64,000 nt of DNA from an uncultured Nitrososphaerota archaeon (GTDB lineage: Archaea; Thermoproteota; EX4484-205; JAAOZP01), in the NCBI GenBank assembly GCA_964635675.1, contig CAZWPT010000045.1, positions 79,691 to 143,690 of the forward strand, written 5' to 3'. The position numbers and the translations under genes were made by a program. Numbering within the stretch: position 1 is the first letter of the stretch; each line of letters opens with the position of its first letter. Under the pieces are notes generated by a model that made no database searches, was not told where the DNA came from, and was given only the letters and a program-made list of their open reading frames with translations. Of this stretch, positions 2,331 to 47,313 are shown piece after piece.

Positions 2331-4292
2331 AAAATGAAAGGAAGAATATTCTCATTGTTCCTGCTGTCTTTCATATTGCTTCTGAATTTTCTCCCGTTCA
2401 AACCCATAAAAGCCCAACAAACGTTTCCAAGGGATCAAACGGTCTACATCTCTTCGCCCTGGTCCATACCCGGTTGGAACCCGACGATGAGTGACACGAA
2501 CTGGATGACCCAGATTCAATACCCGACTTTTTACCTATACAATCTTTTCACGGATGAGTGGATTCCGTACGCTGCCTCCGCCTATACGTGGGTTGACAAA
2601 TATACCTTAGAGGTAAAGATAAGGACTGAGGCGAAGTGGTGGGATGGTAAACCTGTGACTGCCGATGATGTAATGTATACTTGGGAGCTGGGAAAGAGGA
2701 TGTTTGTTCCCTTCATAACCCCATTCTGGGATTACTTGGAAGAAGTTGTAGCTATCGACTCTAAAACGGTGCATTTTAGGACGAGTGAGAAGAAACTAAA
2801 CTACTTCCAGTTGCTAGGCGTCCTGCAGCAAATAATTCTGCCAAAGCATAGATGGGAAACGCTGGAAGCAAGATATGGTAAGAAGCTTACGACCGATTTC
2901 AGGGATGATAAGCCAGAGGACATAATTGGGGCGGGTCCATATAGAGCTTACACGGTTTCGGAGTCGAGTTTCTCATACATAAGAGTCGACGACTGGTGGG
3001 GGAAGGACATATTTGGCATTCCAAATCCCAAGTACGTGGTTATATGGATACCCAAGGACAACGTGGCCGCAGCTTTAGCATTTGAACAAGGAGAACTTGA
3101 CTACATGACTCATTTCACTCCCAAGATATGGGAGATGTGGGAAGTTAAGAAGTTGCCAGTAAGGACCTACTACGCGCGTCCTCCGTACTATGTTGGCGGA
3201 GGAGTTGTTTTCCTCTGGATGAACTATAAGACAAAGGGATTGGACAACCCGACGGTTAGAAGGGCCATAGCACACGCGTTGAACATAAGCGAGATGATAG
3301 AGAAGGCCTACTACAACTATGGTTTACAGGCTAAGCCGGTCCCCATAATACACACTAGTGCTGCCGCCATATACATCAATGAATCGCTAATAAGTAACTA
3401 CGGATGGTCTTTTAACATTGAGAAGGCTAAGAAGATACTTGATGACGCCGGCATAAAACCGGGTCCCGATGGCATAAGGAGGCTGCCTGACGGCACAAAG
3501 CTTGGTCCATACACCATACAGGTTCCATATGGTTGGACAGATTGGATGATGATGTGCGATATGATAGCCTCAAACCTCAAGGCAATAGGGATAGAGGTTG
3601 AACCAGTATTTCCAGACTTCTCCGTTTGGTGGCAACGCTTAACCGAAAAGAACTGGGATATGGTCTTAGGATGGGCTGACGCTTCGCCTGGCTATTCTCA
3701 TCCATGGAATGCTTTCAGGTCAACGATGGACCCGAGGCTAAGCCATCCGTCTGGTAATTGGGAGAACTATAACAACCCTGAGGTTACCACTCTTATCGAT
3801 GCGCTTCCCGTAGAGACAGATCCCGCAAAAATAAAGGCTATTTATAATAAGCTGCAGGAAATATGGTTAAAAGACATACCTGGAGTACCGCTCTTCTATG
3901 GTGCATCGTGGTATGAGTATTCCGAGGCCCACTGGGTCGGCTGGGCCAACGAGGAGAACAAGTTCTGGTTCCCTCAGGCCTGGAACTGGCCTTCCAACAT
4001 GCCAATATTCTTCAGAGTAGTGCCGAAGGGTCAAACGCCAAAGGAAGTTCCTTGGGTCGAGACAAAATTTCCAACCAGCAAGATACTTGCAGACCTGGCA
4101 GCTGCTCCAGTCCATGGACTAGTAACCGTGACGAGAACCGTTACGGAAACCGTGGTTCAGACGGTTGCGACCACCGTCACGACCACGCAAACCGTCCCGG
4201 CTTTCGACGTGGTTAGCGCTGGAGGCATAGGAGTAGTAGCCCTAGTAATAGGAGTAGCGGTTGGCTGGCTAGTCGCCTCTAGAAAGAAGTAG
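2331..4292 (+). CDS. ABC transporter substrate-binding protein of family 5 (OppA-like). It has an N-terminal signal peptide, a C-terminal Thr/Val-rich linker and a TM anchor.
   Basis: The ORF in the track runs 2238..4292. The likely true start is the internal ATG at 2331 (MKGRIFSLFLLSFILLL, a signal peptide). A family-5 SBP core follows. The C-terminus (TVTRTVTETVVQTVATTVTTTQTV, then a hydrophobic helix, then SRKK) is the archaeal membrane-anchored SBP type. Confidence 0.85.
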   Translation, partial: KMKGRIFSLFLLSFILLLNFLPFKPIKAQQTFPRDQTVYISSPWSIPGWNPTMSDTNWMTQIQYPTFYLYNLFTDEWIPYAASAYTWVDKYTLEVKIRTEAKWWDGKPVTADDVMYTWELGKRMFVPFITPFWDYLEEVVAIDSKTVHFRTSEKKLNYFQLLGVLQQIILPKHRWETLEARYGKKLTTDFRDDKPEDIIGAGPYRAYTVSESSFSYIRVDDWWGKDIFGIPNPKYVVIWIPKDNVAAALAFEQGELDYMTHFTPKIWEMWEVKKLPVRTYYARPPYYVGGGVVFLWMNYKTKGLDNPTVRRAIAHALNISEMIEKAYYNYGLQAKPVPIIHTSAAAIYINESLISNYGWSFNIEKAKKILDDAGIKPGPDGIRRLPDGTKLGPYTIQVPYGWTDWMMMCDMIASNLKAIGIEVEPVFPDFSVWWQRLTEKNWDMVLGWADASPGYSHPWNAFRSTMDPRLSHPSGNWENYNNPEVTTLIDALPVETDPAKIKAIYNKLQEIWLKDIPGVPLFYGASWYEYSEAHWVGWANEENKFWFPQAWNWPSNMPIFFRVVPKGQTPKEVPWVETKFPTSKILADLAAAPVHGLVTVTRTVTETVVQTVATTVTTTQTVPAFDVVSAGGIGVVALVIGVAVGWLVASRKK

Positions 4293-4352: not shown

Positions 4353-4562
4353 GTGAACAGCATGTTCAGAAGGATATTGCTGACGATTCTCGTGTGGGGT
4401 CTTATCCTGGAAATACTGACCCTTATATATCTCCGCGATATGGCTTGGAGGTTTGAATTCGCATACAATCTTTTCCTCCTAATAATAACTTCAATAGCCT
4501 TGCTAATACTTGTGGCAAGGATGAGAAGCGAGTATAGGAGGACGGTGGCTTCGAAAGACTAG
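4353..4562 (+). CDS. small hypothetical membrane protein (2 predicted TM helices)
   Basis: 69-aa ORF with two hydrophobic segments. No recognisable domain. Confidence 0.3.
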   Translation: MNSMFRRILLTILVWGLILEILTLIYLRDMAWRFEFAYNLFLLIITSIALLILVARMRSEYRRTVASKD

Positions 4563-4569
4563 GGTGCTG

Positions 4570-6873
4570 TTAAACCGGCAACCCGAGGGACATGAAGAGG
4601 TCGATGACGACCTTGGGCTTAACCGGGAACCATAAGGCGAACCAAAAAACCTGCGTAATTACGACTAAGGCTTGTAGTAATCTATGGTGTTTCCCTCGGC
4701 TCAGGCAGCCGGATAGGCCGATGTAGAGTCCCGGCAACACCGAGTAGAAGTAAAACGGGTATACCCACCTCGTCATCAGGTATGCGAGCAGAACGTACGG
4801 TAAAAAGCTGGCTAAAACCCATAGTAGAGTGAAAAGAAGCGGCCTCTCGAAACTCCGGCTCCTTATTCCTTTGAATATGTAGAATAGGCTGATGGGTATG
4901 AATACCCATATGCTCCACCAGAGCGGAGTGTAGATGCCGTAGTAGGCGAAAGAATTATATTCTCTCACAACCCCTTCAACCACTTCCCTTGTCGTCAGCA
5001 GGTAGAATGGCATGGGGGAGAATGGTTCCAACGGGTTTACCCACTGTAACGGAAGGATCACGTCCCTAGGGTCTTGATATTTTAAGCTGCTGTGGTAAGC
5101 CAGCATATAGCTAACATGTTTCAAAGGATTCCTGTCAAAGATCGAGTAGTAGGAATCGTATATCCATAGGCCAGTCAAAAATACGACGAGCACAGTAGCC
5201 GCAACCCTCATGCAGGATTTTGCAACATGTTTAAATGAGTTCTCCGAGCCCCCCGCGCTTATGATTAGAAACAGTGCAATGCCAGGATATATAAACAAGG
5301 AACTGAGCTTGCATAAAGAGGCTAGGCCCAGGAAAAGACCGCCCAGATCATGCTTCCCTCTTAAAACAAGTAGGCTCGCAGCAAGTATGAACGCCATAGC
5401 TGGAGCATCAAGAATAGCCATCTGCCCTATGTTGAATGCCATAATGTCGAAAGCGAACAGAATTACGGAGCATAGGGAAACATCTTTTCTGCCGCCCAGG
5501 AGTAAGGCAAGCATATAGATTAGTAGTATAGATGCTAAGCTGGCCGAGATGACTGATGCACGCCAACCTGCCGGGTTATCTCCTAATAGTGCAATACTTA
5601 ACGCGATTAAAAGCTTCGTCAGAGGCGGATGCTCGTTATTCGTCGCCTCGCCGCGAAGCATGTCTCTAGCTGCACTAACGTAATACCTTTCATCAAAGAT
5701 AAGGTCCCAGCTTACCATCCCTCCGGGTGTTTCACGCTTAGGGTATTCGAGAATGGACAGCCTCAGGATCAACGTGAGAGCAACTACGGCTAGCAAAGCC
5801 AGCTCAGGAGTTGCTTTCTTGAAAGAATTCAAAGCCAGCATTCTTCTCTTTATTGTCACGCGGGCCCTAGACACCAGCATCGTGAAACTCTGCCGATATT
5901 TCCCGCAAGTGGACGAAACCGTCTTAACCATGCTTCTCGTGTTCAAAAGCACCAACAGGGCCAGGGTTAGTATCGCCAAGACCATTGACACTGCTTCGCT
6001 GAACAAGTCTAGGAATGATAGATTTGGATGTAAAACCGCGACCAGCCTGTTAGTGTACAGGTAGTGATTAAAATACCAGTGAACCAGAAGGGAGGCGTAG
6101 ATGCCGTAAAGTACGTATGACAGGGCCATAGCAAACCCCTGTATGAACGCTAAGGTGAGCTTTCCAACACCCCAAGCGTTTGGAACCGCGTAGTGCGAGA
6201 AAGCGAAGAGAGCTGAGGAAAAAATAATGGTCACCCATTCGTCATTTTCGATCTTAAAAGATACGGGTAAGCCCCATGATCTTAAAAGCCTCTTCGCGCT
6301 TTCAGGGCTAAAGAATGAGAGTAGAGAAACATTCAGCTTTTTGCGAAACGAAAGGTTGCCGACACCCCTGTTCAGGTAGAAAGAGTAGAAAAAACCCAGC
6401 AGTAGCATTCTGAACACGATCTCCTCCAGTATGGGGGACCAGGCTAATTGAAAGTAGGCTGATATTGGATCCGGGCTTAAGGGTGGGATGCCTGTCGATA
6501 TCTGTAGATTTTTTTGGATCGATTCGATAAGGCTCAGAGCCGTATGAGTTAGGCTCGTGATAACAGGCATAAGCAGCAAGAAATTGCCGCTTGGAAATGC
6601 AACAGGCTCTTGAAGAAATCTGCGTGCCGCTTCTCTGAGGCTTTCTCCCGACTTGAAAGCGAAAACGAAGCATAAGGAATAAATAATTTCAGCAAGTACA
6701 AAGTAGAAGTACCATGATGTTTGGATTTCCGACACTGCTTTCGATAGGCCTTCGGTTAAAATTATACTGATACCTAGAGGAATCGAGAGGAGGCTTAGTG
6801 CAATCAAGACGACAATAAGGATGAATGTAAATGGTTTCAGACACGAATGGGCAGCTTTCAAAGATATGTTCAT
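4570..6873 (-). CDS. Fusion protein. The N-terminal part is a CPBP-family (CAAX/Abi) intramembrane metalloprotease domain. The C-terminal part is a GT-C-fold glycosyltransferase resembling PMT/ArnT-type dolichyl/undecaprenyl-phosphate-sugar transferases.
   Basis: All three CPBP motifs are present: EEIVFR (EExxxR), FAFSH (FxxxH) and HWYFN (HxxxN). The C-terminal 430 aa or so are polytopic and carry a DE-containing first-loop motif (IFDERYYVSAARDM) like GT39/GT83 enzymes. Confidence 0.7.
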   Translation of the reverse strand: MNISLKAAHSCLKPFTFILIVVLIALSLLSIPLGISIILTEGLSKAVSEIQTSWYFYFVLAEIIYSLCFVFAFKSGESLREAARRFLQEPVAFPSGNFLLLMPVITSLTHTALSLIESIQKNLQISTGIPPLSPDPISAYFQLAWSPILEEIVFRMLLLGFFYSFYLNRGVGNLSFRKKLNVSLLSFFSPESAKRLLRSWGLPVSFKIENDEWVTIIFSSALFAFSHYAVPNAWGVGKLTLAFIQGFAMALSYVLYGIYASLLVHWYFNHYLYTNRLVAVLHPNLSFLDLFSEAVSMVLAILTLALLVLLNTRSMVKTVSSTCGKYRQSFTMLVSRARVTIKRRMLALNSFKKATPELALLAVVALTLILRLSILEYPKRETPGGMVSWDLIFDERYYVSAARDMLRGEATNNEHPPLTKLLIALSIALLGDNPAGWRASVISASLASILLIYMLALLLGGRKDVSLCSVILFAFDIMAFNIGQMAILDAPAMAFILAASLLVLRGKHDLGGLFLGLASLCKLSSLFIYPGIALFLIISAGGSENSFKHVAKSCMRVAATVLVVFLTGLWIYDSYYSIFDRNPLKHVSYMLAYHSSLKYQDPRDVILPLQWVNPLEPFSPMPFYLLTTREVVEGVVREYNSFAYYGIYTPLWWSIWVFIPISLFYIFKGIRSRSFERPLLFTLLWVLASFLPYVLLAYLMTRWVYPFYFYSVLPGLYIGLSGCLSRGKHHRLLQALVVITQVFWFALWFPVKPKVVIDLFMSLGLPV

Positions 6874-7205
6874 CTTAGCTTATTATCCGGCAAATTATTA
6901 ATGAGAATGCCAAAGTTTAAAAGCATTACGGCAACGCGTGCAGACTCAGGGTTAGTCAATAGTTTAAGTCCCAATGCTCATCCTCCTCGCAGAAGCCCGG
7001 GATGGGAGGCTAGTTTTCAACATTTCCCCAAAACACCCTTTACCTTTAAGACGGGTTCTCTTTCATTTCTCTTCAAATTAGTCTAGGGGAAACGGGTTGA
7101 AACACTTCGGTTAAGCGTGGCGAGGAGCGTTGAACAATGCCTTGCTTAAAGTTTGAGATGATTTTACGGAGTAGGCTAACATTAACACTTGGTGACCAAT
7201 ATAGC

Positions 7206-8324
7206 CTAACTCTTCCATACGATTGAGATACTGGTTGAATAACCCCAAACTAGGCTTAAAGCAATACCTACGAGGTTTGCGAGAAGATAGTGTAGTCCAG
7301 AGTAAACAGTTAAAACATGTAATGTGAAAAGCTCTATACAGATTCCTACTATTCTTGTCCAGTTGTATTCGAAGGCTCTCCTAAACACCGATCTTAAAGA
7401 GGAATCGGCCACCAGGTCTCTGAACGTGAAAAATTCATTCAGAGCGAAGTTTGATAAGACGGAGGCTTCTGCGCTGATCGAAGCGGAGAACACGTAATGC
7501 AGATGAAAGTTTTCAGTCAAAAACCATAAGATGGCCTCGTTAACTAGGATCCCCACCAACCCGACCAGCATGAAGCTTATAAGCCTCCTGTATTCGCTTG
7601 CCTCCTTTACTAAGGAGTATAAGTGTTTAAGATAAAGCAGAATCTCGCGTAACCCGAGTTTACTTCTGCCTCCAGCCCTACGCTGAAAACTGTAAGGTAT
7701 TTCGCAGACCCTTCCATATCTGCCTTTCGCAAGTATTTCAAGCAGGATCTTGTAACCTATAGGGTTCAGCTTAATTCCATTAATCACTTTCTTATGGAGG
7801 GCGAAGTATCCGGAGAGCGGGTCTGAAACGCGGCTCGTCTTCGGCAGGGAAATGTGCGCAAGGATGGTGGCTCCTTTAGATACAAGTCTCCTCCACGCGC
7901 TAAGGCCCTCGGCTCCACCCCCCTTAACATACCTTGAGGCGATGACAATGTCGCAGCCTCTTCTTAACCCTTCCAACATGTGTGTCAGGGCTTCCGGAGG
8001 GTGCTGCAAGTCAGCGTCCATAACCGCTATCAGCCGTGCTCTCGCCAACCTTAGACCATCCGTAACCGCAGAGCCCAATCCCAGCTTTCCAGGCCTTCTC
8101 ACCACCCTGATGTTTCCAAACTTTATGTTAAGCCCCTCAGCGATGCCGGCTGTCCCATCAGGACTATTGTCGTCGATGATGATGATCTCGAAATCTACAC
8201 CCTTCAACGCATCCTCTATTCTTTCGATAAGCTTAGGAATGGTTTCTGCTTCCATGTACGTGGGTATTATGATTGACAATTGCATACTGTACTCGACCGA
8301 TTCTCCCGCTTCCTCTTCGACCAA
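7206..8324 (-). CDS. GT2-family polyprenol/dolichol-phosphate sugar synthase (DPM1-like) with a C-terminal GtrA-like membrane domain
   Basis: LSIIIPTYMEAETI ... IIIDDNSPDGT ... VMDADLQHPPE is the classic Dpm1/GT2 core. The C-terminal hydrophobic GtrA-like segment follows. It lies immediately upstream, on the same strand, of the GT-C fusion gene. Confidence 0.85.
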   Translation of the reverse strand: MVEEEAGESVEYSMQLSIIIPTYMEAETIPKLIERIEDALKGVDFEIIIIDDNSPDGTAGIAEGLNIKFGNIRVVRRPGKLGLGSAVTDGLRLARARLIAVMDADLQHPPEALTHMLEGLRRGCDIVIASRYVKGGGAEGLSAWRRLVSKGATILAHISLPKTSRVSDPLSGYFALHKKVINGIKLNPIGYKILLEILAKGRYGRVCEIPYSFQRRAGGRSKLGLREILLYLKHLYSLVKEASEYRRLISFMLVGLVGILVNEAILWFLTENFHLHYVFSASISAEASVLSNFALNEFFTFRDLVADSSLRSVFRRAFEYNWTRIVGICIELFTLHVLTVYSGLHYLLANLVGIALSLVWGYSTSISIVWKS

Positions 8325-8614: not shown

Positions 8615-10812
8615 ATGGGGACAGGCTTGGAATGGTGGAGAAAACCCGTTAGAATGATGAGGCTCGACTACTTGGATGCTCTAAGCAGGATGGCTGAATC
8701 AGACATGGATAAGCTGGCCCGGTGGAAAAAGGAGGAGTGGAATATTAACTGCGAATGGGTGATAGGGACCCCGGGGACAGCTCCGGGCCTAGGCTACTTG
8801 ACGACTTTCAACACGCCCAGGTTTGAGAAGTATCCTGCTCTAGGCGACTTCGACCTGGTAAGGGAGTACTTGCCCCGCGCTAGGAAGCACGGCATCAGGG
8901 TCCTAGCGTACCTGAACATGCACTGGTACTCGTACGAGTTTGGACAGAAGCATAGTGATTGGGAGCAGCGTGTCGAGGACGGCAGGAGCTATGGGAGGGT
9001 GCATCCGCTCTACGGCTCCGGGACAACGTTCTGCGTAAACTCGGGGTGGAGGAACTGGGCGTTCGAACTTATAGAGGAGGCTATGAAAACAGGTATTGAC
9101 GGGGTTTTCCTAGATGGACCGGTCGTCTTCCCAGAGTGCTGCTACTGCAAGTCATGCCGGGAAAAGTTTTCAGCAAAGTATGGCGGCGAGGCTCCCAGCT
9201 GGGAAGACTGGTCTAACCCTCTCTGGAGGAAATTCATAGAGTTTAGAGAAGACTCCATGGCGGAGTTTCTCAGGGATGCTCGACGAGCTGTTAAGAAAGT
9301 GAACGAGAAGGGAGTCATATTTCTAAACGGCGGGGCCTGGTGGCCCGGCAGCTGGAGGGTTGCACGCAACATTGAAAAGCTGAGCGAGCATGAGGATTTT
9401 AACGGTGCAGAGGCTTTCTTCCACCCTGGTTCTCAAAACGTGCCTTTAATCTTCTGGGCGCTTGAAGCCAAGCATCTCGCCGCCAAAGGCAAGCCGGCGG
9501 TCGTCTTCAGCCATCACGCGTTGGGCAGCTGGCACTACGTGCCCCTCCCCCGTTTCGAGGCCGAGATCTCGGTTGCGCAAACCGTCTCCTGCGGGGCAAA
9601 CCCCTGGTTCGCCGTCTTCGACTATGCTTTAGACACTAGGCTGGAGGATGCTCTAACCCCTATGAGAAACATTCTAGGCTTTCTGTCAAGAAACGAAGAG
9701 TACTATGTGGACACTGTTTCGAAGGCTGAAGCAGCCCTGCTGCTCTCTTACAAACCTCCACGTTCTACCTTTCTGAACTCAGGGAACTCTACCTTGATCC
9801 GGGGACTGGTGTTGAGAGAGACCTTAAAATAGAGGAGGGCACAGGCCGGAGGACAACAGACCTGAAAGCGAGGAAAGCCGTGTGCGACGAAGTCTACACT
9901 AACTCCATCCTGGGCGCGGCAACCATTTTAAGTCGTAACCATGTTGCGTACGACATAGTTCTAGACAACGCTCTGGTCAACGGTGAGCTGGAGAAGTACT
10001 CTCTACTGGTTCTTCCAAACTCTGCCTGCTTGAGCGATGAACAGGTCCGCGGCATCCAGGGTTTCCTCGGAAAGGGCGGAAGCCTTGTCTGCTCCTTTGA
10101 AACAGGCTGCTACGATGAGTATGGCAACCATAGGCTTGAAAACCCGCTCTGGAGCATTCTCGGCATAGAAGAGTGCGACGGCATGATGCTTCCCAGAGTC
10201 GGGGAGGAATACATGAAGCTCTCTGACTCCGCCGGGGGAATCTTCTCGATCCCCCCTGGCGCGTTGATACCTAGGCCAGTGTACAGTCTCAAAACCCTTC
10301 CGAGAGAAGATGCTGTAGCACCATGCTTCTTCATGAAACCGATAGGTGCCTACTACACTGCTCCCAAGGGTGTTTCAAAATATGCTGCGATCGTTTGCAG
10401 CCGTCACGGCAGGGGTAGAACGGTCTACTTCTCCTCGCTGATTGAAGACTTTTACACCAGGTACAGGATGCCTGACATCTCAAGGGTTTACGCTGACTGC
10501 GCTAGGTTTGCAATAGGCAGGCCGCCGGTTGTGGAGGTTGAAGCTCCGGAGACTGTGCAGTTCGAAGTCAGAGAGCAGAGAAGCACCGGGAGAATACTAG
10601 TCCACCTTGTTAACACCACTGGGGACATGCAGAGGCCGGTTTCAAGCATAACCTGTGTGCACGGCATTAAGGTTAGGACCAGGGGGATCCGGCCTAGGAG
10701 AGTGTTTAAGCTTAGCGATGGAAACATGCTTGCTGGGCGAGAGCTTTCAGACTGTTTCGAATTCACTCTGGATAATCTGATGGTTTACGACGTGATCGTC
10801 TTCGAGTTCTAA
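8615..10812 (+). pseudogene. GH42-family-like glycoside hydrolase (beta-galactosidase or exo-beta-glucosaminidase-like) split by a frameshift into two ORFs, 8615..9832 and 9880..10812
   Basis: The first ORF has TIM-barrel GH features and a Cys cluster (CCYCKSC), the CxCxxC pattern of the GH42 Zn site. The second ORF has the GH42 trimerisation-like domain (AYDIVLDNAL ... YSLLVLPNSACLSDEQ ... GGSLVCSFETG). Frame 1 is open from 9730 and overlaps the frame-2 stop at 9830-9832. The only in-frame start codon for the second part is the GTG at 9880. Confidence 0.55.
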
Positions 10813-11776
10813 ACCCCGAGTGACCAGTATTTCCCCAGTCCTTTTCCTCCTCGCGAACAAGCTTTATCGCCTTCCAGACCAGGCCTTGGCTTTTCCTCAA
10901 AGCCTTCCTAGCCTCCTCCGCCTCAACCCTTGCTAGAGCCATGACTAGAGCAACCTTCAAATCATACCTGCTTCTCCTGTAGATTTCCTCAGCCTCCTCG
11001 CTTGAGATTCCTGCGAAAAAGCGCAGCAGCCTCCTAGCCCGCGACCTAAGCTTCACGCTTAAAGGCTTAATATCTATCATCAGGTTCGTATACACCTTTC
11101 CGATCCTCACCATGGAGACTGTTGAAATCATGTTTAACACCATTTTCTCCGCGGTACCCGCCTTCATCCTTGTCGACCCCGCTATAGCCTCTGGACCCAC
11201 TATGGGCGTTATCACTATGCTAGCGTAGGAGCCGATCTTGGGGTTTGGCACTGTTGCGACAGCTATGGTTTTAGCACCCCTCCGCCTAGCCTCTTTAAGA
11301 GCCCCGATCACGTAGGGCGCCCTGCCTGAGGCGCTCAGCCCTATGACAACATCTCTCTCAGAAACCTTGAGGCGCTTAACATCTTTAACACCAGCCCTCA
11401 TATTGTCCTCAGCCCCTTCAACAGCCTTGAACATGGCTCTCCTCCCGCCAGCTATCAGTGCCTGAACCATGCTGGGGCTTGCGCCGAAGGTAGGTGGGCA
11501 CTCGGCCGCGTCTATAACCCCTATCCTGCCGCTCGTGCCTGCGCCAACATATATTAGTCTACCGCCTTTCTTAAAGGCTTGGGCAACGCTTTCAACAGCC
11601 CTAGCGATCCTCGGTATCTCGAGTTCAACAGCCCTAGCCACCTTCTTATCCTCCCTGTTTATCATCTTCAAAGCCTCAACCACCTGAACCCTGTCTATTC
11701 TAACCGTCCTAGGGTTTCTATGCTCAGTCAACAGTTTTTCAAACTCCGCATCTATTCTCTCCAGTCTTGAAACCAT
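10763..11776 (-). CDS. murQ: N-acetylmuramic acid 6-phosphate etherase-like SIS-domain protein
   Basis: The N-terminus (TEHRNPRTVRID) and the SIS motif (GGRLIYVGAGTSGRIGVIDAAECPPTFG) match the MurQ/GckR family. The gene is divergent from the amino-sugar operon. Confidence 0.75.
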   Translation of the reverse strand: MVSRLERIDAEFEKLLTEHRNPRTVRIDRVQVVEALKMINREDKKVARAVELEIPRIARAVESVAQAFKKGGRLIYVGAGTSGRIGVIDAAECPPTFGASPSMVQALIAGGRRAMFKAVEGAEDNMRAGVKDVKRLKVSERDVVIGLSASGRAPYVIGALKEARRRGAKTIAVATVPNPKIGSYASIVITPIVGPEAIAGSTRMKAGTAEKMVLNMISTVSMVRIGKVYTNLMIDIKPLSVKLRSRARRLLRFFAGISSEEAEEIYRRSRYDLKVALVMALARVEAEEARKALRKSQGLVWKAIKLVREEEKDWGNTGHSGFRTRRRSRRKPSDYPE

Positions 11777-11792
11777 TTTTCTAAGCCGCTAT

Positions 11793-12785
11793 ATGTTAAC
11801 CAGGTGGATGATAAATCTTGGGTTTGAAAAACACTTATATGTCTCCGTTCTAAACAGATTCCTGTTGAACCTGGAGGAAAGGAGTTTTAAAGGCCGGGAT
11901 CTCAGGCCTGTTCTAGAAGTCGTCAACGATGCAATGCCTCTCGACAGGCTTAACGAGGAGTCCTTCAGGTACAGGGTTCTCCTGCAGGAGAATTATGATC
12001 CTGAGCTCTGCATCGTGTCGGAGTCGGAGGGAAGGGTGGTTGGCTTCATCTACTCGGTGACCAGGGGTGAAACCGGCTATATCAACATACTGGCTGTGAA
12101 AAACGGGTTTAGAGGAAGGGGCATCGGGTCAAGAATGCTTGCAACAGTTGAGGAAAAACTCAGGAAGAATGGTTTTAAGAGAATAGTCTTCTCAGGCGGG
12201 CCTAGATACCTTGTTCCCGGGGTTGACGTTAAGGCTTACCCTGGGGCAATAGGCTTCTTCACTAAGAACGGTTACAGTGAATCAAGCAGGGAATCGGTTT
12301 CAATGAGCATGTCGCTCATGGGTTACACAACGCCCGGAGGAGTTTTCGAGCTTGAGAGAAGGCTTGCTGCAGAAGGCTACTCGTTCCAGCAGCTTGACGA
12401 TGAACACGTGTTGGAGCTTCTCCTCTTTCTGAAAGCCAGGTTCCCGTGGTGGTATGAAGACGCTAGAAGAACTATGGAGAAACACCCTAGGTGTCTCGAC
12501 TGGTTTACGCTTGCCCTCCACAATGGGGAGTTAGTCGGCTACTGTCAAATAGGCACCGACGGGCTGATAGAGCATTTCGGCCCTTTTGGGGTTGCTGAGG
12601 AGCATAGGAACAAGGGGGTTGGGACAGTGCTGTTCCACAGGTGTTTGAGGCTAATCCAGTCTCTCGGCGGTAAGAATGCTTGGCTGGCTTGGGGCGGGGG
12701 GAGAAACTACGGTTTCTACGTTAGGAACGGCATGTCTGAGGCCCGGAGGTTCGCGGTTTTCACCAAGAGTCTTGAAAGAGGGTGA
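11793..12785 (+). CDS. tandem-GNAT (two acetyltransferase domains) N-acetyltransferase with an MshD-like architecture
   Basis: Two GNAT cores are present. The first reads GFIYSV ... INILAVKNGFRGRGIGSRML. The second reads GYCQIG ... FGPFGVAEEHRNKGVGTVLF. Confidence 0.75.
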   Translation: MLTRWMINLGFEKHLYVSVLNRFLLNLEERSFKGRDLRPVLEVVNDAMPLDRLNEESFRYRVLLQENYDPELCIVSESEGRVVGFIYSVTRGETGYINILAVKNGFRGRGIGSRMLATVEEKLRKNGFKRIVFSGGPRYLVPGVDVKAYPGAIGFFTKNGYSESSRESVSMSMSLMGYTTPGGVFELERRLAAEGYSFQQLDDEHVLELLLFLKARFPWWYEDARRTMEKHPRCLDWFTLALHNGELVGYCQIGTDGLIEHFGPFGVAEEHRNKGVGTVLFHRCLRLIQSLGGKNAWLAWGGGRNYGFYVRNGMSEARRFAVFTKSLERG

Positions 12786-12791
12786 TCACCG

Positions 12792-13505
12792 TTGGGCATT
12801 AAAATACTCGCGTTCAGCGCCCATACTGGGGATGTTGAAATCACGGCGGGCGGGACAATTCTGCGTAACTTTGAGGAAGGGGGGAGGTGTCTAATACTCC
12901 ACATGTTTAAGCCGTCTGGCAAATGGGCCCGGCCACCGGGGCTCTCCGCGGAGGAGTATGCTGAAATAAGGCTTAAGCAGGCTTTAGAAGCATCCAAGAA
13001 GCTGAATGCTGAAGTCGTCTTCCTAGGGTGTGTCGAGGGCGTCCCCTATGATGCTGAGGAGGTTAAGGTGAAGATGTATAAGGCTATTTTAGAGTTCACG
13101 CCTGACGCGATCCTGATGCACTGGAAGGGAAGCTATCATCCTGATCATCTTGCATGCCACCTTCTCGCCATACAGGCTTTCGAACGCTTCACGGGAGAAC
13201 GGAGGGCGGAGGGGAAACACGGCGAGCCGGTGGAGCTTTACTACCCGGAGAACTGGGAGGACCCGCAGGGCTTCCAGCCGGAGGTTTATGTTGACGTCAG
13301 CAATGTTTTCGAAAAATACTTGGACGTGATTAAGACTTACGATTTTACCTCTGGAAAGTACAGCGGGTTCAACTACGTGGACTACTATTCCTGCTTGAAA
13401 AGAGTCAGGGGACTTGAAGTCGGTTTCAAATACGCGGAAGCCTTCATGACGTTCGGAGACTGGGGTGTTAAGAGGATAAGGAGGAAAAGCCTCCTGGGCG
13501 AGTAG
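12792..13505 (+). CDS. LmbE/PIG-L family N-acetylglucosaminyl deacetylase
   Basis: The N-terminus (ILAFSAHTGDVEITAGGTI) is a variant of the AHPDDE..GGT motif. A later HPDH motif is present. The start codon is TTG. The gene is operon-linked to the GNAT gene and the DUF1343 gene. Confidence 0.8.
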   Translation: MGIKILAFSAHTGDVEITAGGTILRNFEEGGRCLILHMFKPSGKWARPPGLSAEEYAEIRLKQALEASKKLNAEVVFLGCVEGVPYDAEEVKVKMYKAILEFTPDAILMHWKGSYHPDHLACHLLAIQAFERFTGERRAEGKHGEPVELYYPENWEDPQGFQPEVYVDVSNVFEKYLDVIKTYDFTSGKYSGFNYVDYYSCLKRVRGLEVGFKYAEAFMTFGDWGVKRIRRKSLLGE

Positions 13506-13506
13506 T

Positions 13507-14655
13507 TTGGCGAGCAGGGTTAAGCCCGGCCTAGATGTTCTTCTCCAGGGGAAAACACTGCTTGAAAGACTCTCTGGCCTAAGCATTGGGCTGGTTGTAA
13601 ACCACACGTCCGTGACGAGAAGCCTTGAGCCGTCTTACCTACGGCTCTTAGAGAAAGGGATACGGGTGAAAACCCTTTTTACTCCTGAACACGGGCTTTG
13701 GGGAGCCTACGCTGCCGGTGAGCCTGTGGAGTCTGAAAACCCTTCTTTAAACGGGGTTATGGTTCAAAGCCTATACGGCTCTCAGAGGAAGCCGAGTGTT
13801 GAGGCTCTTGAGAATCTAGACCTGCTGGTTTACGATATTCAAGACGTTGGGTGCAGAACCTACACTTACATATCGACTATGCTGAACTGTTTTGAAGAAG
13901 CCTGTAGGAACAGCGTCGGCTTCATGGTTCTTGACAGGCCTAACCCGCTGGGGGGCCTCACCGTTGAGGGGCCGGTTTTGAAGAAGGGCCTGGAATCATT
14001 CGTCGGACCACATTATCTTCCCCTTAGATACGGTATGACTCCTGGTGAACTTTGCCTCCTCTACGCTTACGATAAGGGTTTGAAGCCTCCTCACATGGTT
14101 AGAATGGCCGGGTGGAGCAGAATGATGTACTATCATGAAACAGGCCTCCCCTGGGTATATCCTTCGCCTGCAATACCGACTCCAGTCACCGCGCTGCTTT
14201 ACTCCGGGATGGTTCTGCTTGAAGCAACGAACCTGTCTGAGGGCAGGGGAACGTATAAGCCGTTCGAAGTCTTCGGCGCCCCATGGCTTAAGTCGGCGGA
14301 GCTTGTTTCCACGTTGAAAAGAAGACTGGGTAAGGATTGTCTCGTTATGGAAACAAGGTTTATACCTTCCTCGTCGAAGCATAAGGGGCAGGTTTGCAGA
14401 GGAGCTCACCTGGTGGTTAAAAACCCAAAGGGGGTTAGGCCTTTCAAGGTCGTGGTGCACATTATTCAATCCGTGCTGGAGACTAACCCTGTGGAATTTG
14501 AAGTTGATCATGGAAAGATGGATAGGCTGCTAGGGGACAGTGCGACTAGGAGAAACATCTTAAGCGGGATGAGTGTTGAGGAGATAGTTTTAAAACTGAG
14601 GGACGAGCAAAAAAGGTTTAAAGCCAGAATCAGAAGGATTCTTCTATACGATTGA
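13507..14655 (+). CDS. DUF1343-family protein (NamZ/YbbC-like exo-beta-N-acetylmuramidase family)
   Basis: GLVVNHTSV and LFTPEHGLWG match the conserved N-terminal motifs of DUF1343/NamZ proteins. The gene is tightly packed between the deacetylase and the kinase. Confidence 0.65.
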   Translation: MASRVKPGLDVLLQGKTLLERLSGLSIGLVVNHTSVTRSLEPSYLRLLEKGIRVKTLFTPEHGLWGAYAAGEPVESENPSLNGVMVQSLYGSQRKPSVEALENLDLLVYDIQDVGCRTYTYISTMLNCFEEACRNSVGFMVLDRPNPLGGLTVEGPVLKKGLESFVGPHYLPLRYGMTPGELCLLYAYDKGLKPPHMVRMAGWSRMMYYHETGLPWVYPSPAIPTPVTALLYSGMVLLEATNLSEGRGTYKPFEVFGAPWLKSAELVSTLKRRLGKDCLVMETRFIPSSSKHKGQVCRGAHLVVKNPKGVRPFKVVVHIIQSVLETNPVEFEVDHGKMDRLLGDSATRRNILSGMSVEEIVLKLRDEQKRFKARIRRILLYD

Positions 14656-15620
14656 AACGCATTGTTGTAGCCGGTGTAGACGGGGGTGCTAGCTCAACCA
14701 GATGCCTCGCTGTCGAGACGTGCTCTTGGCGTGTCGCCGCATGTAAATCCGGGCCTTCGAACATTCTTTCAGCAGGCTCGGAGACAACCCTGCTTTCAGT
14801 GAGGAAAGCGTTTAACGGGGCCTTGAGGAAGCTTGAATGCGAAGAAGCTGAAGTCGTTGCACTCTGCCTCTCAGGAGCTTGGACAGCAGGTGGAAGGCTA
14901 GCGAAACTGTTTCGCGGAAGGATTAAAGCTGGTAAAATCCTGATTAAAAGTGATGTTGAAGCTGCTGCAGCAGCCTGCCTAGGGTTTGACAGGCAGGGTA
15001 TTGTAGTCATAGCTGGAACGGGCTCAGTAGTTATAGGTGTTTCAGAAGGATTATTCTTCCGAGCCGGTGGCTGGGGGCATGTCTTTGACGATGAGGGTGG
15101 AGCATACTCCGTTGCAATAGAGGCTTTGAGAGCGGCTTTCCAGTCTTACGATGGGAGAGGGAGGGAGACAAGCCTGGAGGAGGCGGCCCGCCGTTTCTTC
15201 AAAGCCAGGAGCATGGAGGAGCTGGCTGAAAGAGTTCATGAAATGAGGAAGGAGCGTATAGCTCTATTCGCGAAAACAGTTAACGCTGAGGCGGAGAAGG
15301 GGGACTTGGTCGCCAGGAGCATAATTGAGAATGCGGCAGGACCCCTCTCGAGAGGCGTGCTGGCTGTGGCTAGGCGAATGAGGCTGACCCGTGAAGACGG
15401 GTTGAACATTTACTTCTCTGGGGGAATGTTCAATCATCATCGGAACATGCTTGCTAGAAGCATTCGGAAACATCTTTCATCAGAGTACGTGAAGGTTATT
15501 GTTAGGAGGCCTGCGTACCCTCCTGCTGTAGGAGCGTTAATGATAGCTTTTAGAGAAGTTGGCTTAAAACCCCCGGTTGAAGTCTTGAAGAAAGCGAAGA
15601 AGGCTTTAAGAGATGAGTGA
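14652..15620 (+). CDS. BadF/BadG/BcrA/BcrD-type ATPase-family sugar kinase (MurNAc/GlcNAc kinase MurK/NagK-like)
   Basis: The N-terminal phosphate-1 loop is VAGVDGGASSTRC. AGTGS and the ASKHA-fold organisation follow. The start overlaps the preceding gene by 4 nt. Confidence 0.75.
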   Translation: MKRIVVAGVDGGASSTRCLAVETCSWRVAACKSGPSNILSAGSETTLLSVRKAFNGALRKLECEEAEVVALCLSGAWTAGGRLAKLFRGRIKAGKILIKSDVEAAAAACLGFDRQGIVVIAGTGSVVIGVSEGLFFRAGGWGHVFDDEGGAYSVAIEALRAAFQSYDGRGRETSLEEAARRFFKARSMEELAERVHEMRKERIALFAKTVNAEAEKGDLVARSIIENAAGPLSRGVLAVARRMRLTREDGLNIYFSGGMFNHHRNMLARSIRKHLSSEYVKVIVRRPAYPPAVGALMIAFREVGLKPPVEVLKKAKKALRDE

Positions 15621-22221: not shown

Positions 22222-22303
22222 TGTTTTTCAAGTATTTAAAGCGTTTACATAGTTTTAAGAAACATTTTTACAGGATCTGGGCTTAGCAAGGGATAACCTT
22301 TAT

Positions 22304-23755
22304 ATGGAGGAATGTGGAATAACACCTAAGATGAGAGAGTTAAGCAGTTTGGATAAGCAGAAACAAGTCGCGTTCTGTCTAATCCTTCTGATAATTCTGT
22401 CGCTAACCGGAAACCAACCAATAGCGTCCTATGCTCAGGAATCCGAGTATGAGAGGGTGGCAATCCTGCTGAACAACGTTAAATCAGCCAAGTATCGTTT
22501 CTCAGATGAAGAGGGAACCGTTGGAGCCATAGGTTTCCGAGTCCTTGGAGAGGAGACGGTAAGCGGAGAGAATACTTGGAAGGTTGAATGGGAGTATGAG
22601 GAGGAGGGTGAGACTCCTGAGACAATGCTCCTGTGGATCTCTAAATCGACTGGAAAATGCCTACAGGTTATGATTGACGAGGAAACCTTTACGGGACAAT
22701 ACGCTGAGATGTATGGCAACATAATGCTGTATGTTTGGGTTGCTTGGGTAGGCGCGTGGAGCGAAGCATGGAACTTCACCACAGTATACAGTTACGAGGA
22801 GCTCGGGTATGGAAGGCTGATTTACCTGGGATCCGAAATAGAAACATACGGTCCAAGCCGGCTTCTAGTCTACAAGTACAGGTGGGAAGGGTATGTGAAC
22901 GCACCGGAATCTTACCGTGGTGTTGCAGAATGGTGGTTCGCCCCCGTCAGCTTCGGCACCCTTATAGTTAAAATCTATTTTGAAACTCTCGATACTAAGG
23001 AATGGGATAAGATAGAGCTTTTATCAGTTGATCTGGTTAACCCTCAGCCAAGACCGAACATAGTGATTGACGCCCGGTTTGACAAGACGCAGCTAAAGCC
23101 GAGTGAGGAACTCACTATAACTATCACTGCTTCTAACACGGGGAACGCCATGGGCACTCATAACCTTACCTTAAGTGTAGGCGGAAAAGTCGAGAAAAGT
23201 TGGCTGATTGTCCTGAAACCGGGTGAGAGCAAGAGTCTAAGCCATAAACTATCCTTCGCTGCAGACGGCTCGTATTCAGTGAGGATCGGCGATCAAACAG
23301 TTACTATAACTGTTTCAACAACCCTGCCGGCAAGGTTTGAGGCTAGCGGCCTTAACATAAGCCCGAGTTCAGTTAAGGTCGGCCAGTCGTCGACAATCTC
23401 CGTCACGGTTAAGAACACTGGCGGCGAATCGGGTACGTACGAGGTTACGCTGAAGGTTAACAATCAGGTTGTCGAAACAAAGAGGGGTACCCTGGACTCA
23501 GGCCAGTCAACCACTGTGAGCTTCGCATACACGCCGACTAGCGAGGGAACGTATAATATTGACGTGAACGGCTTAACTGGAAGCCTGACCGTTAGCAAGG
23601 AGGAGGGGGGTGGAGCAGCCCCAGAAACTCCCTGGCTCATGATAATAGGGGCTATTGTAGCAGTGGTCGTCCTAGTCTTGGTGTTGCTGCTTTTAAGGAG
23701 AAAGCCTAAAGCAGAGTTTCCACCACCCCCGCCTCCGCCGCCTCCACCCAGATAA
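22304..23755 (+). CDS. secreted cell-surface protein with CARDB-like domains, a C-terminal TM anchor and a cytoplasmic polyproline tail
   Basis: A signal peptide is present. The likely start is the internal M near 22331. Two CARDB-type repeats are present (ITASNTGNAMGTHNLTLSVGGKV and VTVKNTGGESGTYEVTLKVNNQVV). The C-terminus is a TM helix, then RRKPKAEF, then ten prolines. Confidence 0.7.
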   Translation: MEECGITPKMRELSSLDKQKQVAFCLILLIILSLTGNQPIASYAQESEYERVAILLNNVKSAKYRFSDEEGTVGAIGFRVLGEETVSGENTWKVEWEYEEEGETPETMLLWISKSTGKCLQVMIDEETFTGQYAEMYGNIMLYVWVAWVGAWSEAWNFTTVYSYEELGYGRLIYLGSEIETYGPSRLLVYKYRWEGYVNAPESYRGVAEWWFAPVSFGTLIVKIYFETLDTKEWDKIELLSVDLVNPQPRPNIVIDARFDKTQLKPSEELTITITASNTGNAMGTHNLTLSVGGKVEKSWLIVLKPGESKSLSHKLSFAADGSYSVRIGDQTVTITVSTTLPARFEASGLNISPSSVKVGQSSTISVTVKNTGGESGTYEVTLKVNNQVVETKRGTLDSGQSTTVSFAYTPTSEGTYNIDVNGLTGSLTVSKEEGGGAAPETPWLMIIGAIVAVVVLVLVLLLLRRKPKAEFPPPPPPPPPPR

Positions 23756-47273: not shown

Positions 47274-47313
47274 TATATAAATATTGCGTCCCTCATTGTC
47301 GGTTTTAAGGAAG

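Follow-up and report, generated by a model that had tools for sequence, protein, structure and literature searches.

A CPBP–glycosyltransferase fusion protein of Thermoproteota as a candidate maturation enzyme for an adjacent, C-terminally anchored binding protein

The fusion gene and its two halves

The locus considered here lies in a stretch of 64,000 nucleotides that was analysed as a whole (hereafter, the window) and belongs to an uncultured hot-spring archaeon. On the forward strand, it carries the gene of an Opp-type substrate-binding protein and a short ORF; on the reverse strand, it carries a gene that encodes a CPBP/Rce1-like domain and a GT39/PMT-like GT-C domain in one polypeptide and, 332 bp upstream of it, the gene of a dolichol-phosphate-mannose (Dol-P-Man) synthase homolog (Table 1).

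Table 1. Positions of genes, domains and motifs at the fusion locus, in window coordinates
Feature	Position	Strand	Remarks
Opp-type (SBP_bac_5) ABC substrate-binding protein	2355..4292	+	N-terminal signal peptide; PF00496 2e-61; proposed target of the fusion enzyme
Thr/Val-rich linker of the binding protein, LVTVTRTVTETVVQTVATTVTTTQT	4119..4193	+	Proposed O-mannosylation acceptor
Conserved C-terminal tail of the binding protein	4194..4292	+	VPAFDV signature, TM helix (G-x-G, small-xxx-small spacing, GW pair), SRKK, stop codon
Two-TM ORF	4362..4562	+	66 aa; between the binding-protein and fusion genes; weak TM0026 family match, E 5e-10
Whole fusion gene	4570..6873	-	767 aa; CPBP/Rce1-like domain, cytoplasmic linker, GT39/PMT-like GT-C domain; single ORF
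GT-C glycosyltransferase domain, GT39/PMT-like	4570..5811	-	Residues 355-767
Loop-1 DE motif, IFDERYY	5680..5700	-	Residues 392-398; D394 and E395 in the first extracytoplasmic loop
Interdomain linker, K/R-rich	5812..5937	-	Residues 313-354; 11 K/R; predicted cytoplasmic
CPBP (Rce1-like) domain	5869..6873	-	Residues 1-335; 8 predicted TM helices, both ends predicted cytoplasmic
CPBP motif 3, HWYFN	6067..6081	-	Residues 265-269 (H265, N269)
CPBP motif 2, FAFSH	6193..6207	-	Residues 223-227 (F223, H227)
Family-specific insertion, 41 residues	6247..6369	-	Residues 169-209, between the EExxxR and FxxxH helices; conserved SPExAK; 8 K/R; predicted cytoplasmic
CPBP motif 1, EEIVFR	6409..6426	-	Residues 150-155 (E150, E151, R155)
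Dol-P-Man synthase-type GT2 with C-terminal GtrA/DPMS 4-TM domain	7206..8324	-	372 aa; PF00535 GT2 1e-33, PF04138 GtrA_DPMS_TM 4e-20

The reading frame of the fusion gene is intact over all 767 residues, as had been maintained in a preliminary description of this DNA, which took the CPBP and GT-C parts for one protein and recommended a search for the same fusion in other genomes. Such a search yields at least 29 distinct full-length fusion ORFs, from independent genome and metagenome contigs, that show 39–97% identity and have both halves in one frame. Both halves are likewise in one frame in ten protein clusters. The fusions are found in the Bathyarchaeia and in a sister clade of the Thermoproteota. 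Both halves are also encoded elsewhere as stand-alone genes in housekeeping contexts, so that each of them may have general roles as well; the tail-bearing binding proteins described below adjoin the fusion only, not the stand-alone versions of either half.

The CPBP half is not detected when the whole 767-residue protein is scanned with Pfam; scanned alone, the N-terminal domain matches PF02517 with 27.9–28.2 bits (cut-off, 22.4), a family that is also matched by 9 of the 10 fusion N-domains and by 51 of 85 members of the wider family. It is a divergent CPBP/Rce1-like domain, and the support for its fold comes from HMMs, not from a structure. Its homologs, 320 representatives in all, are nearly always stand-alone proteins of about 350 residues. 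The three CPBP motifs that had been read from the DNA are all in place: E150, R155, F223, H227 and H265 are invariant in an alignment of 85 family members, which are 19–32% identical to the CPBP domain of the window, E151 and N269 reach 90% conservation or more there, and the catalytic residues are the most conserved positions among these distant proteins. Of the 29 full-length fusions that were aligned, 23 keep the complete catalytic set, as does the window protein; together with the top conservation over the 85 members, the integrity of this set points to selection for catalysis. Within the family-specific insertion, P190 is invariant in the 85 members.

The C-terminal half belongs with the GT-C fold and passes the Pfam gathering scores for both PMT_2 (2e-10, 41.3 bits vs. 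26.1) and PMT (9e-7, 29.1 bits vs. 22.7), which agrees with its earlier designation as a PMT-like enzyme with a DE motif in loop 1. This motif aligns with VVFDEVHF of Pmt1, and its D394 and E395 are invariant in all 29 fusions. The best sequence-level matches of this half are protein O-mannosyltransferases, the aligned motifs including DE and HPPLxK; the structure-based matches, namely, Pmt4, GPI-MT-I, ArnT and ALG12, do not discriminate between acceptor types. The NCBIfam equivalog NF058602, which represents the characterised bacterial Pmt, is matched partially, with 33.5 bits where the cut-off is 800; the GT-C half is a distant relative and no ortholog.

Linkage of the fusion to a tail-bearing binding protein

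The sugar-uptake binding protein next to the fusion is distinguished by its C-terminus. Among 35 distinct proteins of this kind, Thr makes up 45% of the 30 residues preceding the tail, as compared to 6.3% in the rest of the protein. The tail itself is tripartite at every adjacent binding protein and consists of a VPxxDV signature, a helix of about 24 residues and S[RK][KR] at the extreme C-terminus; in the tail alignment (A2), the P, D, G, A, G, GW and S positions are invariant. In the window clade, the signature reads PAF or PGF. The tail is covered by no NCBIfam or Pfam model, including those for C-terminal sorting signals, and Cys is absent from all the tails compared (alignment A2 and further tails), which have no other obvious lipidation site. 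Paralogous binding proteins (E 1e-15 to 1e-29) have near-identical tails, and orthologs of the binding protein in Thermofilaceae, Sulfolobales and Thermotogota have different C-termini or none; the tail thus tracks the lineage and not the binding domain. Crenarchaeal binding proteins of the oligopeptide type have been reported to carry a C-terminal TM anchor after glycosylated Ser/Thr (PMC3387779).

Seen from the enzyme side, a tail-bearing SBP_bac_5 gene is found near the fusion at 13 of the 13 genome loci with enough flank, at a distance of less than 600 bp in 12 cases and of 4.1 kb in one; it is convergent and downstream at most loci, upstream on the same strand at others, and each fusion locus has a single tail. 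At loci with the GT-C gene alone, a tail-bearing SBP_bac_5 gene is present in 0 of 48 cases, and no tail occurs in 840 kb of sequence from such loci (Fisher p 1.5e-13 for the two kinds of loci, a statistic that ignores phylogeny). Seen from the tail side, a metagenome search with the tail alone returns 42 carriers, each of them an SBP_bac_5 protein, and the fusion adjoins in about 25 of the 30 informative loci found in this way; it is absent from 5 loci of tail-bearing binding proteins with at least 3 kb on each side. One metagenome-assembled genome (JZ-1_201912_bins_83) contains three separate pairs of fusion and binding protein (L014, L060 and L067). The adjacency holds even though the surrounding catabolic genes, the gene order and the orientation vary.

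The pairing of fusion and synthase, to which the preliminary description had drawn attention, is real in the window but local: the synthase neighbour is conserved in the window clade only and is missing at most fusion loci of the Bathyarchaeia. The partner of the fusion that is conserved at almost all loci is the Opp-type binding protein and not the synthase, which is a new observation. A Nitrososphaerota genome that encodes only a stand-alone GT-C protein and no fusion possesses the orthologous binding-protein operon, and the tail encoded in this operon is devoid of P..D and GW, with the Thr-containing linker kept; this genome is a natural control for the link between fusion and tail.

Enzyme and tail also vary together. 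A P-x-x-D tail is found in 18 of the 18 enzyme–tail pairs with an intact catalytic set, and P..D is lost in 7 of the 7 pairs with a degenerate set, in which the TM core, the Thr linker and the basic end are kept (Fisher p 2e-6). Since the degenerate pairs all belong to one clade, this co-variation probably reflects a single evolutionary event.

A proposed maturation pathway and its alternatives

The canonical Rce1 fold is a bundle of 8 TM helices that surrounds a conical cavity, with the motifs on TM4, TM5 and TM7. In MmRce1, both termini are on the side opposite to the cavity opening (PMC5874806). The topology prediction for the CPBP half, which had also been recommended at the outset, gives 24 K+R in the cytoplasmic loops and 1 in the outside loops, and the same bias is seen family-wide. 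With both ends of the domain in the cytoplasm, the homology to MmRce1 predicts that the catalytic cavity faces outward, beside the site of the GT-C domain; the orientation would be opposite to that reported for MmRce1.

We suggest, with a probability of roughly one half, that the 767-residue protein is a bifunctional enzyme devoted to the maturation of the neighbouring, C-terminally anchored Opp-type binding protein. The binding protein would be exported via Sec and kept in the membrane by its C-terminal helix, the final SRKK lying on the cytoplasmic side. The CPBP cavity, open outward and sideways into the membrane, would dock the conserved tail helix, and CPBP halves with an intact catalytic set, the one in the window included, would probably cut at or near VPxxD, at the outer boundary of the membrane. 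The DE-motif loop of the GT-C half would be located on the same outer face, and this half would move mannose from Dol-P-Man, the putative product of the upstream synthase, to threonines in the linker that immediately precedes the tail. The transfer of mannose from Dol-P-Man to Ser/Thr is suggested indirectly, by the adjacent synthase homolog and by the neighbour with its 45% Thr linker. The idea that the processing of a surface substrate is coupled to its glycosylation, as envisaged from the first inspection of the DNA, gains support from these comparative data, which also name a candidate substrate, the adjacent SBP_bac_5 protein with its Thr-rich linker and tail. One consideration counts against cleavage: because a glutamic protease hydrolyses its substrate and the tail carries neither a Cys nor another obvious lipidation site, cutting would free the binding protein, with no evident means of retention.

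More tentatively, one could envisage a new archaeal system of surface-protein maturation, in which a Cys-less C-terminal signal of Opp-type binding proteins (Thr-rich stalk, VPxxD, GxG…GW helix, SRKK) would be read by one bifunctional enzyme, the outward CPBP domain cleaving at the signature and the GT39-like domain O-mannosylating the stalk with Dol-P-Man. If so, archaeal protein O-glycosylation would have its first identified enzyme in the fusion, which would also be the first protease–glycosyltransferase sorting enzyme, and the stand-alone GT-C protein of Caldarchaeales would be the general archaeal protein O-mannosyltransferase. As it stands, the fusion is a concrete candidate for the still-unknown machinery of archaeal O-glycosylation and tail processing.

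The alternative that fares best, although we consider it rather unlikely, retains the same target and the glycosylation role but regards the CPBP half in the window as a non-cutting membrane docking module, which would bind the tail helix and so keep the Thr-rich linker in place at the active site of the GT-C half. It has a precedent in SpdC, a CPBP-family protein that partners a glycan-processing enzyme, SagB, and the non-catalytic scaffold that the preliminary description had offered as its own alternative appears to be a true description of the one derived clade in which the catalytic residues have decayed. It is probably not a description of the window protein, where, as in most fusions, the catalytic set is intact at the very positions that are most conserved over the 85 family members; moreover, a docking function would not predict that P..D is kept exactly with this set and lost with it.

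Less probable still is a GT-C half that, like ArnT or GtrC, acts on an acceptor other than a protein, for instance on a lipid, a lipoglycan or a glycan of the cell envelope. The adjacency to the binding-protein and ABC-transporter genes would then stem from inherited synteny or from a carbohydrate-utilisation locus common to these genes, and the CPBP half would have an unrelated housekeeping role. The acceptor of the GT-C half could, indeed, be something other than protein. However, the adjacency is specific to a tail-bearing binding protein in spite of the diverse catabolic surroundings, it is not shared by the stand-alone GT-C genes, the protein O-mannosyltransferases are the closest sequence matches down to the aligned motifs, and the co-variation of enzyme and tail would be left unexplained.

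It seems very improbable that the CPBP half works like a classical Rce1 at the cytoplasmic face and trims the final residues of the tail (RKK). Admittedly, the founder Rce1 takes off a C-terminal tripeptide at that face (PMC5874806), and the conserved S-R/K-K/R ends the tail a few residues past the helix; but the charge bias, together with the need of the GT-C domain for a cytoplasmic N-terminus, places both CPBP ends in the cytoplasm and hence, by homology to MmRce1, the cavity outside, and the catalytic residues co-vary with P..D at the outer boundary, not with the basic end, which persists in the degenerate clade. Finally, a fusion created by sequencing or assembly error from two neighbouring genes, in favour of which nothing was found even though the halves exist as separate genes in other lineages, is refuted by the comparative data, namely, the 29 distinct fusions from independent assemblies and sources that run in one frame through a conserved K/R-rich linker.

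Relation to known systems

CPBP proteases cut tripartite C-terminal sorting signals, and some of them form pairs of an enzyme and a single adjacent target (10.1101/2023.06.07.544157; PMC11980579). The myxosortase-type systems (MrtX/MYXO-CTERM, MrtJ/JDVT-CTERM and the archaeal MrtA/CGP-CTERM) resemble the fusion system in that a CPBP/Rce1-like glutamic intramembrane protease is combined with a target signal in three parts, namely, signature motif, TM helix and basic cluster; in the JDVT system, the gene of the enzyme adjoins that of its only target, as is the case here at 13 of 13 informative genome loci and at about 25 of 30 informative metagenome loci found through the tail. The Mrt models are the only NCBIfam models touched by the fusion N-domain, and their cut-offs are not reached (MrtJ, 17.1 bits vs. 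75; MrtS and Mrt_core, weak partial matches only). All described Mrt signals contain an invariant Cys that is thought to be lipidated, whereas the fusion-linked tail has none; further, unlike Mrt, the fusion carries a glycosyltransferase and the 41-residue cytoplasmic insertion, and its putative targets are SBP_bac_5 proteins only.

As compared to the GT39 PMTs (yeast Pmt1, Pmt2 and Pmt4, and actinobacterial Pmt), the GT-C half of the fusion is only about 410 residues long, has no MIR domain, is archaeal and fused to a protease, and has a putative acceptor. SpdC (LyrA) and SagB of Staphylococcus aureus are two separate polypeptides, and the structural match is weak; SpdC is regarded as non-catalytic, and its partner SagB is a glucosaminidase, whereas the second half of the fusion is a glycosyltransferase. 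The layout in the window also resembles that of the archaeosortase A/PGF-CTERM system, where, in the haloarchaeal S-layer glycoprotein, an O-glycosylated Thr-rich stretch precedes a motif, a TM helix and a basic tail that are removed by a dedicated membrane protease; the PAF or PGF found in the tails of the window clade adds to the likeness. ArtA, however, is a Cys-based transpeptidase of the exosortase family, whereas the protease half of the fusion is of the CPBP type; no exosortase-family gene is found among the annotated neighbours, and Crenarchaea have been reported to lack archaeosortases and archaeosortase signals (PMC3387779).

The upstream protein, earlier described as a Dpm1-type synthase with a GtrA-like tail, proves to be a full-length homolog of the Dol-P-Man synthase of P. 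furiosus (PfDPMS, 5mlz_A; residues 12–370 vs. 21–372, E 1e-93), including the GtrA-like 4-TM domain, and is likely to be the maker of the lipid-linked sugar donor. A polyprenol-phosphate-sugar GT2 beside a GT-C enzyme that uses this sugar on the outer face is the standard layout. From the Gtr-type three-component systems (GT2 synthase, GtrA flippase and GT-C), the fusion differs by its extra protease domain and by being paired with a GT2 in the window clade only. The 66-residue ORF between the binding-protein and fusion genes is conserved at the loci L004, L005, L009, L010 and L067 and is present also at the fusion-less locus L121; it is probably an accessory protein of the ABC transporter rather than a part of the enzyme system.

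A CPBP-type domain fused to a GT-C glycosyltransferase

The preliminary description had placed in one 767-aa protein an N-terminal CPBP intramembrane protease and a C-terminal GT-C glycosyltransferase, preceded on the same strand by a GT2-type sugar synthase with a GtrA-like tail. The fusion ORF is, indeed, uninterrupted, and all four motifs lie at the named places, namely, EEIVFR at residue 150, FAFSH at 223, HWYFN at 265 and IFDERYY at 392. In the proposed HMM check, residues ~415-570 exceed the gathering scores of the Pfam models PMT_2 and PMT; the CPBP domain is not reported by the Pfam scan of the full-length protein, and when residues 1-330 are scanned alone, PF02517 (Rce1-like) matches residues 141-269 with 27.9 bits (cut-off, 22.4). 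The upstream ORF combines a GT2 domain with a GtrA/DPMS transmembrane domain (Pfam) and matches over its full length the solved dolichol-phosphate mannose synthase (DPMS) of Pyrococcus furiosus (5mlz, E 1e-93). Thus, the domain, motif and HMM results, together with the 5mlz match, confirm the earlier observation in every detail.

Features of the window discussed in this part
Feature	Coordinates	Strand	Length
SBP_bac_5 (Opp-type) binding protein	2355..4292	plus	
Two-TM small ORF	4362..4562	plus	66 aa
CPBP/GT-C fusion	4570..6873	minus	767 aa
Insertion in the CPBP domain (residues 169-209)	6247..6369	minus	~41 residues
Dol-P-Man synthase-type GT2	7206..8324	minus	372 aa
GHL6 ORF	8615..9832	plus	405 aa
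Glyco_hydro_42M-like ORF	9880..10812	plus	310 aa
Salvage-like gene run	10763..15620		
TM-RRR-anchored ORF	22259..23752	plus	
TM-RRR-anchored ORF	43920..47336	minus	
TM-RRR-anchored ORF	59563..61134	minus	

A large protein database holds ten clusters of full-length fusion relatives (42-100% identity), all from uncultured Thermoproteota, and none of the ten carries a PF02517 annotation; since automated annotation overlooks the CPBP half, the fusions are at present labelled just glycosyltransferases. The search of archaeal genomes that had been suggested was made on one genome per GTDB species and yielded 63 loci; six-frame ORFs were then compared to HMMs built from each half. The two halves share a single ORF in Bathyarchaeia and in the clade of the window; some 48 Caldarchaeales (Aigarchaeota) genomes possess the stand-alone GT-C ortholog alone (425-477 aa), and no CPBP relative, that is, no split version of the fusion, is found within ±10 kb of it in these loci. 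Genome and metagenome loci together provide 29 distinct full-length fusions (39-97% identity), with D394 and E395 of the GT-C half invariant in 29/29.

When 1.84 billion representatives were searched exhaustively with HMMER, the N-terminal half retrieved 320 relatives, 228 of them at E ≤ 1e-10. Nearly all are stand-alone proteins of 320-370 aa in which the whole domain is covered, only two representatives being fusions; one cluster member bears the NCBI name CPBP family intramembrane metalloprotease. Among 85 aligned members, whose identity to the window domain is only 19-32%, E150, R155, P190, F223, H227, G257 and H265 are invariant, E151 and N269 are conserved in at least 90%, and PF02517 matches 51 of the 85. 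Judging from this conservation and these matches, the N-terminal half is a divergent archaeal CPBP subfamily whose most conserved positions are the catalytic residues. Every member of the subfamily has a conserved, K/R-rich, predicted cytoplasmic insertion between the EExxxR and FxxxH helices, with an …SPExAK… motif and the P190 that is invariant in all 85 members; to our knowledge, typical CPBP proteins have no such insertion.

Stand-alone CPBP homologs do not lie beside binding proteins or GT-C genes; their neighbours are conserved housekeeping genes, namely, those of HisRS, tRNA-splicing endonuclease and IF-2B. Specifically, in six loci (L115-L120; P0031, P0188, P0194; ~350 aa), the homolog is convergent with the histidyl-tRNA synthetase gene and near that of the endonuclease, with IF-2B nearby in four (L115, L116, L119, L120). 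An exosortase/archaeosortase-family gene lies 7.6 kb away in L115, and some of the stand-alone homologs have C-terminal zinc ribbons. The stand-alone Caldarchaeales GT-C genes of L018 and L052 (~±4 kb around 10001-11340) are likewise found among housekeeping genes, with an Elp3-like radical SAM protein, SAM synthetase and RIO kinase in one locus and DHODH, DUF2070 and RtcA in the other, which suggests a general rather than locus-specific role.

A binding protein with a conserved C-terminal tail

An SBP_bac_5 gene adjoins the fusion in all 13 genome loci with enough flank, and adjoins none of the 48 GT-C-only genes. Mostly it is convergent and 75-600 bp downstream; in three loci it is upstream on the same strand, and in one it is 4.1 kb off. 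All fusion-adjacent binding proteins end in a Thr/Val-rich linker followed by the tail VP[TA]xDV[AVT]S.[AG]G.G..AL[IV][IV]GV..GW..[AG]S[RK][KR], with Thr making up 45% of the 30 residues that precede the tail as compared to 6.3% of the remainder of the protein. The pattern occurs exactly once per fusion locus, including once in the 64-kb window, and is absent from the GT-C-only loci (840 kb); neither NCBIfam nor Pfam has a model that covers the tail. A protein-database homology search with the tail alignment returned short fragments only and was uninformative on target range. In the reverse test, JGI metagenome contigs searched with the tail alone yielded 42 loci with a genuine C-terminal tail, carried in every case by an SBP_bac_5 relative. 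In ~25 of the 42, the tail gene adjoins the fusion or the GT-C part of one truncated by the contig; five loci with at least 3 kb of flank on each side lack the fusion, and one contig encodes two tail-bearing binding proteins in tandem. In the Bathyarchaeia MAG JZ-1_201912_bins_83, each of three fusion paralogs (L014, L060, L067) has its own adjacent tail-bearing binding protein, so that enzyme and target have been duplicated together, as one unit.

The small ORF between the binding-protein and fusion genes, a weak TM0026-family relative (NCBIfam NF050182, E 5e-10), is kept at the same position in L004, L005, L009, L010 and L067, and the fusion-less L121 has a 69-aa ORF at the matching position; the 66-aa product is probably an accessory protein of the Opp-type sugar ABC transporter.

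By sequence comparison, the tail tracks the lineage rather than the binding domain: within a clade, near-identical tails are found on paralogous binding proteins whose similarity is only remote (E 1e-15 to 1e-29). Orthologs of the window's binding protein have a coiled-coil-like stalk and another C-terminal helix in Thermofilaceae, a Thr-rich linker and a different helix in Sulfolobales, and no C-terminal extension in Thermotogota. A natural control is provided by a Nitrososphaerota genome with the stand-alone GT-C only (L052), where the orthologous operon comprises the binding protein, the small ORF and ABC genes and no fusion; here the tail keeps a Thr-containing linker and a helix, and both P..D and GW are missing.

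The enzyme and the tail vary together. In one monophyletic fusion clade from marine and estuarine metagenomes, the catalytic set decays in series (H265→R/S, then F223→S, E151→V and R155→Q, with H227→N or N269→I in single members), and the P..D signature is lost from the adjacent tail in 7/7 distinct pairs (…VSTTNYTTLAGAG…), with the helix core AGAG.VALIIGV.VGW..ASRKT and the Thr-rich linker retained. The P-x-x-D signature is kept in 18/18 distinct pairs that have an intact catalytic set. The association (Fisher p 2e-6, not corrected for phylogeny) comes from a single clade and probably reflects one evolutionary event. It is the pattern to be expected of a protease that works on the signature motif, with the helix core serving for docking.

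The tail was rejected as a general surface-protein anchor in this genome, as other anchored ORFs of the window use a different C-terminus. The C-termini of three large ORFs consist of a TM helix plus RRR/RRRK, extended in two of them by poly-proline (PPPPPPPPPPR; PPPPSPT); this TM-RRR(-poly-Pro) anchor may represent a second lineage-specific tail type.

Proposed processing and glycosylation of the binding protein

The CPBP fold, the GT-C acceptor and the scheme of cleavage and mannosylation are put forward here as proposals. The binding protein would be exported and retained by its C-terminal helix, on which the CPBP domain would dock, probably cutting near VPxxD in enzymes with an intact catalytic set, such as that of the window; the GT-C domain would mannosylate the adjacent Thr-rich linker, with the neighbouring synthase supplying the Dol-P-Man. 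Each element has a precedent. For MYXO-CTERM signals, CPBP proteases are both necessary and sufficient for cleavage (PMC11980579), and crenarchaeal oligopeptide-type binding proteins have a glycosylated Ser/Thr stalk followed by a C-terminal anchor (PMC3387779). The JDVT-CTERM/MrtJ system likewise consists of an enzyme and an adjacent target. Cleavage would set the binding protein free and, because the tail contains no Cys, leave it with no evident replacement anchor.

The predicted topology, which the preliminary description had called for, can be envisaged as follows. With TM segments taken from AF2 helices, the CPBP domain would span the membrane 8 times; its predicted cytoplasmic loops contain 24 K/R and its outside loops 1, a bias seen likewise across the 29 fusions. 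Loops 123-135 and 230-237 are among those predicted outside, and 169-209 and 313-354 among those predicted inside. GT-C enzymes begin inside the cell and have the DE loop outside (PglB, ArnT, Pmt1), so that the linker between the two domains (42 residues, 11 K/R) should be cytoplasmic. In the MmRce1 structure, the catalytic cavity opens on one side and both termini lie on the other (PMC5874806). Hence, by homology, the cavity of the fusion CPBP domain would open outside, where the GT-C active site, the Thr linker and VPxxD would also be placed.

The strongest rival is a CPBP domain that only docks the target, as in SpdC-SagB. This is apparently the situation in the degenerate clade, so that the non-catalytic scaffold offered as an alternative in the preliminary description appears to hold there; it is less likely for the window protein because its catalytic set is intact. 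A non-protein GT-C acceptor, with the synteny incidental, is disfavoured by the adjacency, which is specific and varies in arrangement, and by the co-variation of enzyme and tail. Rce1-style trimming of the cytoplasmic RKK end was considered and rejected, as topology is against it. A sequencing or assembly artefact as the source of the fusion was also considered, and is excluded.

The components (CPBP sorting protease, GT39-like GT-C and DPMS) are each of a known kind; neither their fusion nor the enzyme-target link has been described before, nor has the Cys-less tail that the archaeal binding proteins carry. In 2021, the archaeal O-glycosylation pathway was still being called elusive (PMC8241124), and our literature searches found no later identification. 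The locus offers a specific, testable trio of donor synthase, transferase and acceptor protein, and widens the recently established role of CPBP proteases in C-terminal signal processing to TACK archaea, to a Cys-less signal and to a glycosyltransferase-fused enzyme. A natural control is already at hand in the clade whose catalytic residues and signature motif have both decayed.

The synthase and other neighbouring genes

A synthase upstream of the fusion and on its strand is peculiar to the window's clade; the Bathyarchaeia loci L009 and L084 have a divergently oriented one, and most other Bathyarchaeia fusion loci, like all GT-C-only loci, lack the gene. In the window, the two genes are 332 bp apart, and a TATA-like TTTTAAA ~48 nt upstream of the start codon is the only notable feature of the gap; Rfam and tRNA scans of the window gave no matches.

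The GHL6 and Glyco_hydro_42M-like ORFs are in different frames, and their counterparts in L002 (4178-6337) form a single 719-aa gene; the split in the window may reflect a frameshift, a pseudogene or a sequencing error. The gene run that follows encodes a SIS/GKRP-type (MurQ-like) protein, a double GNAT, a PIG-L deacetylase, NamZ_N/NamZ_C and a BcrAD/BadF-type kinase, and resembles a bacterial MurNAc/peptidoglycan-sugar salvage set. Its position beside the GH42/GHL6 genes and the Opp-type importer hints at scavenging of bacterial cell-wall sugars by this archaeon.
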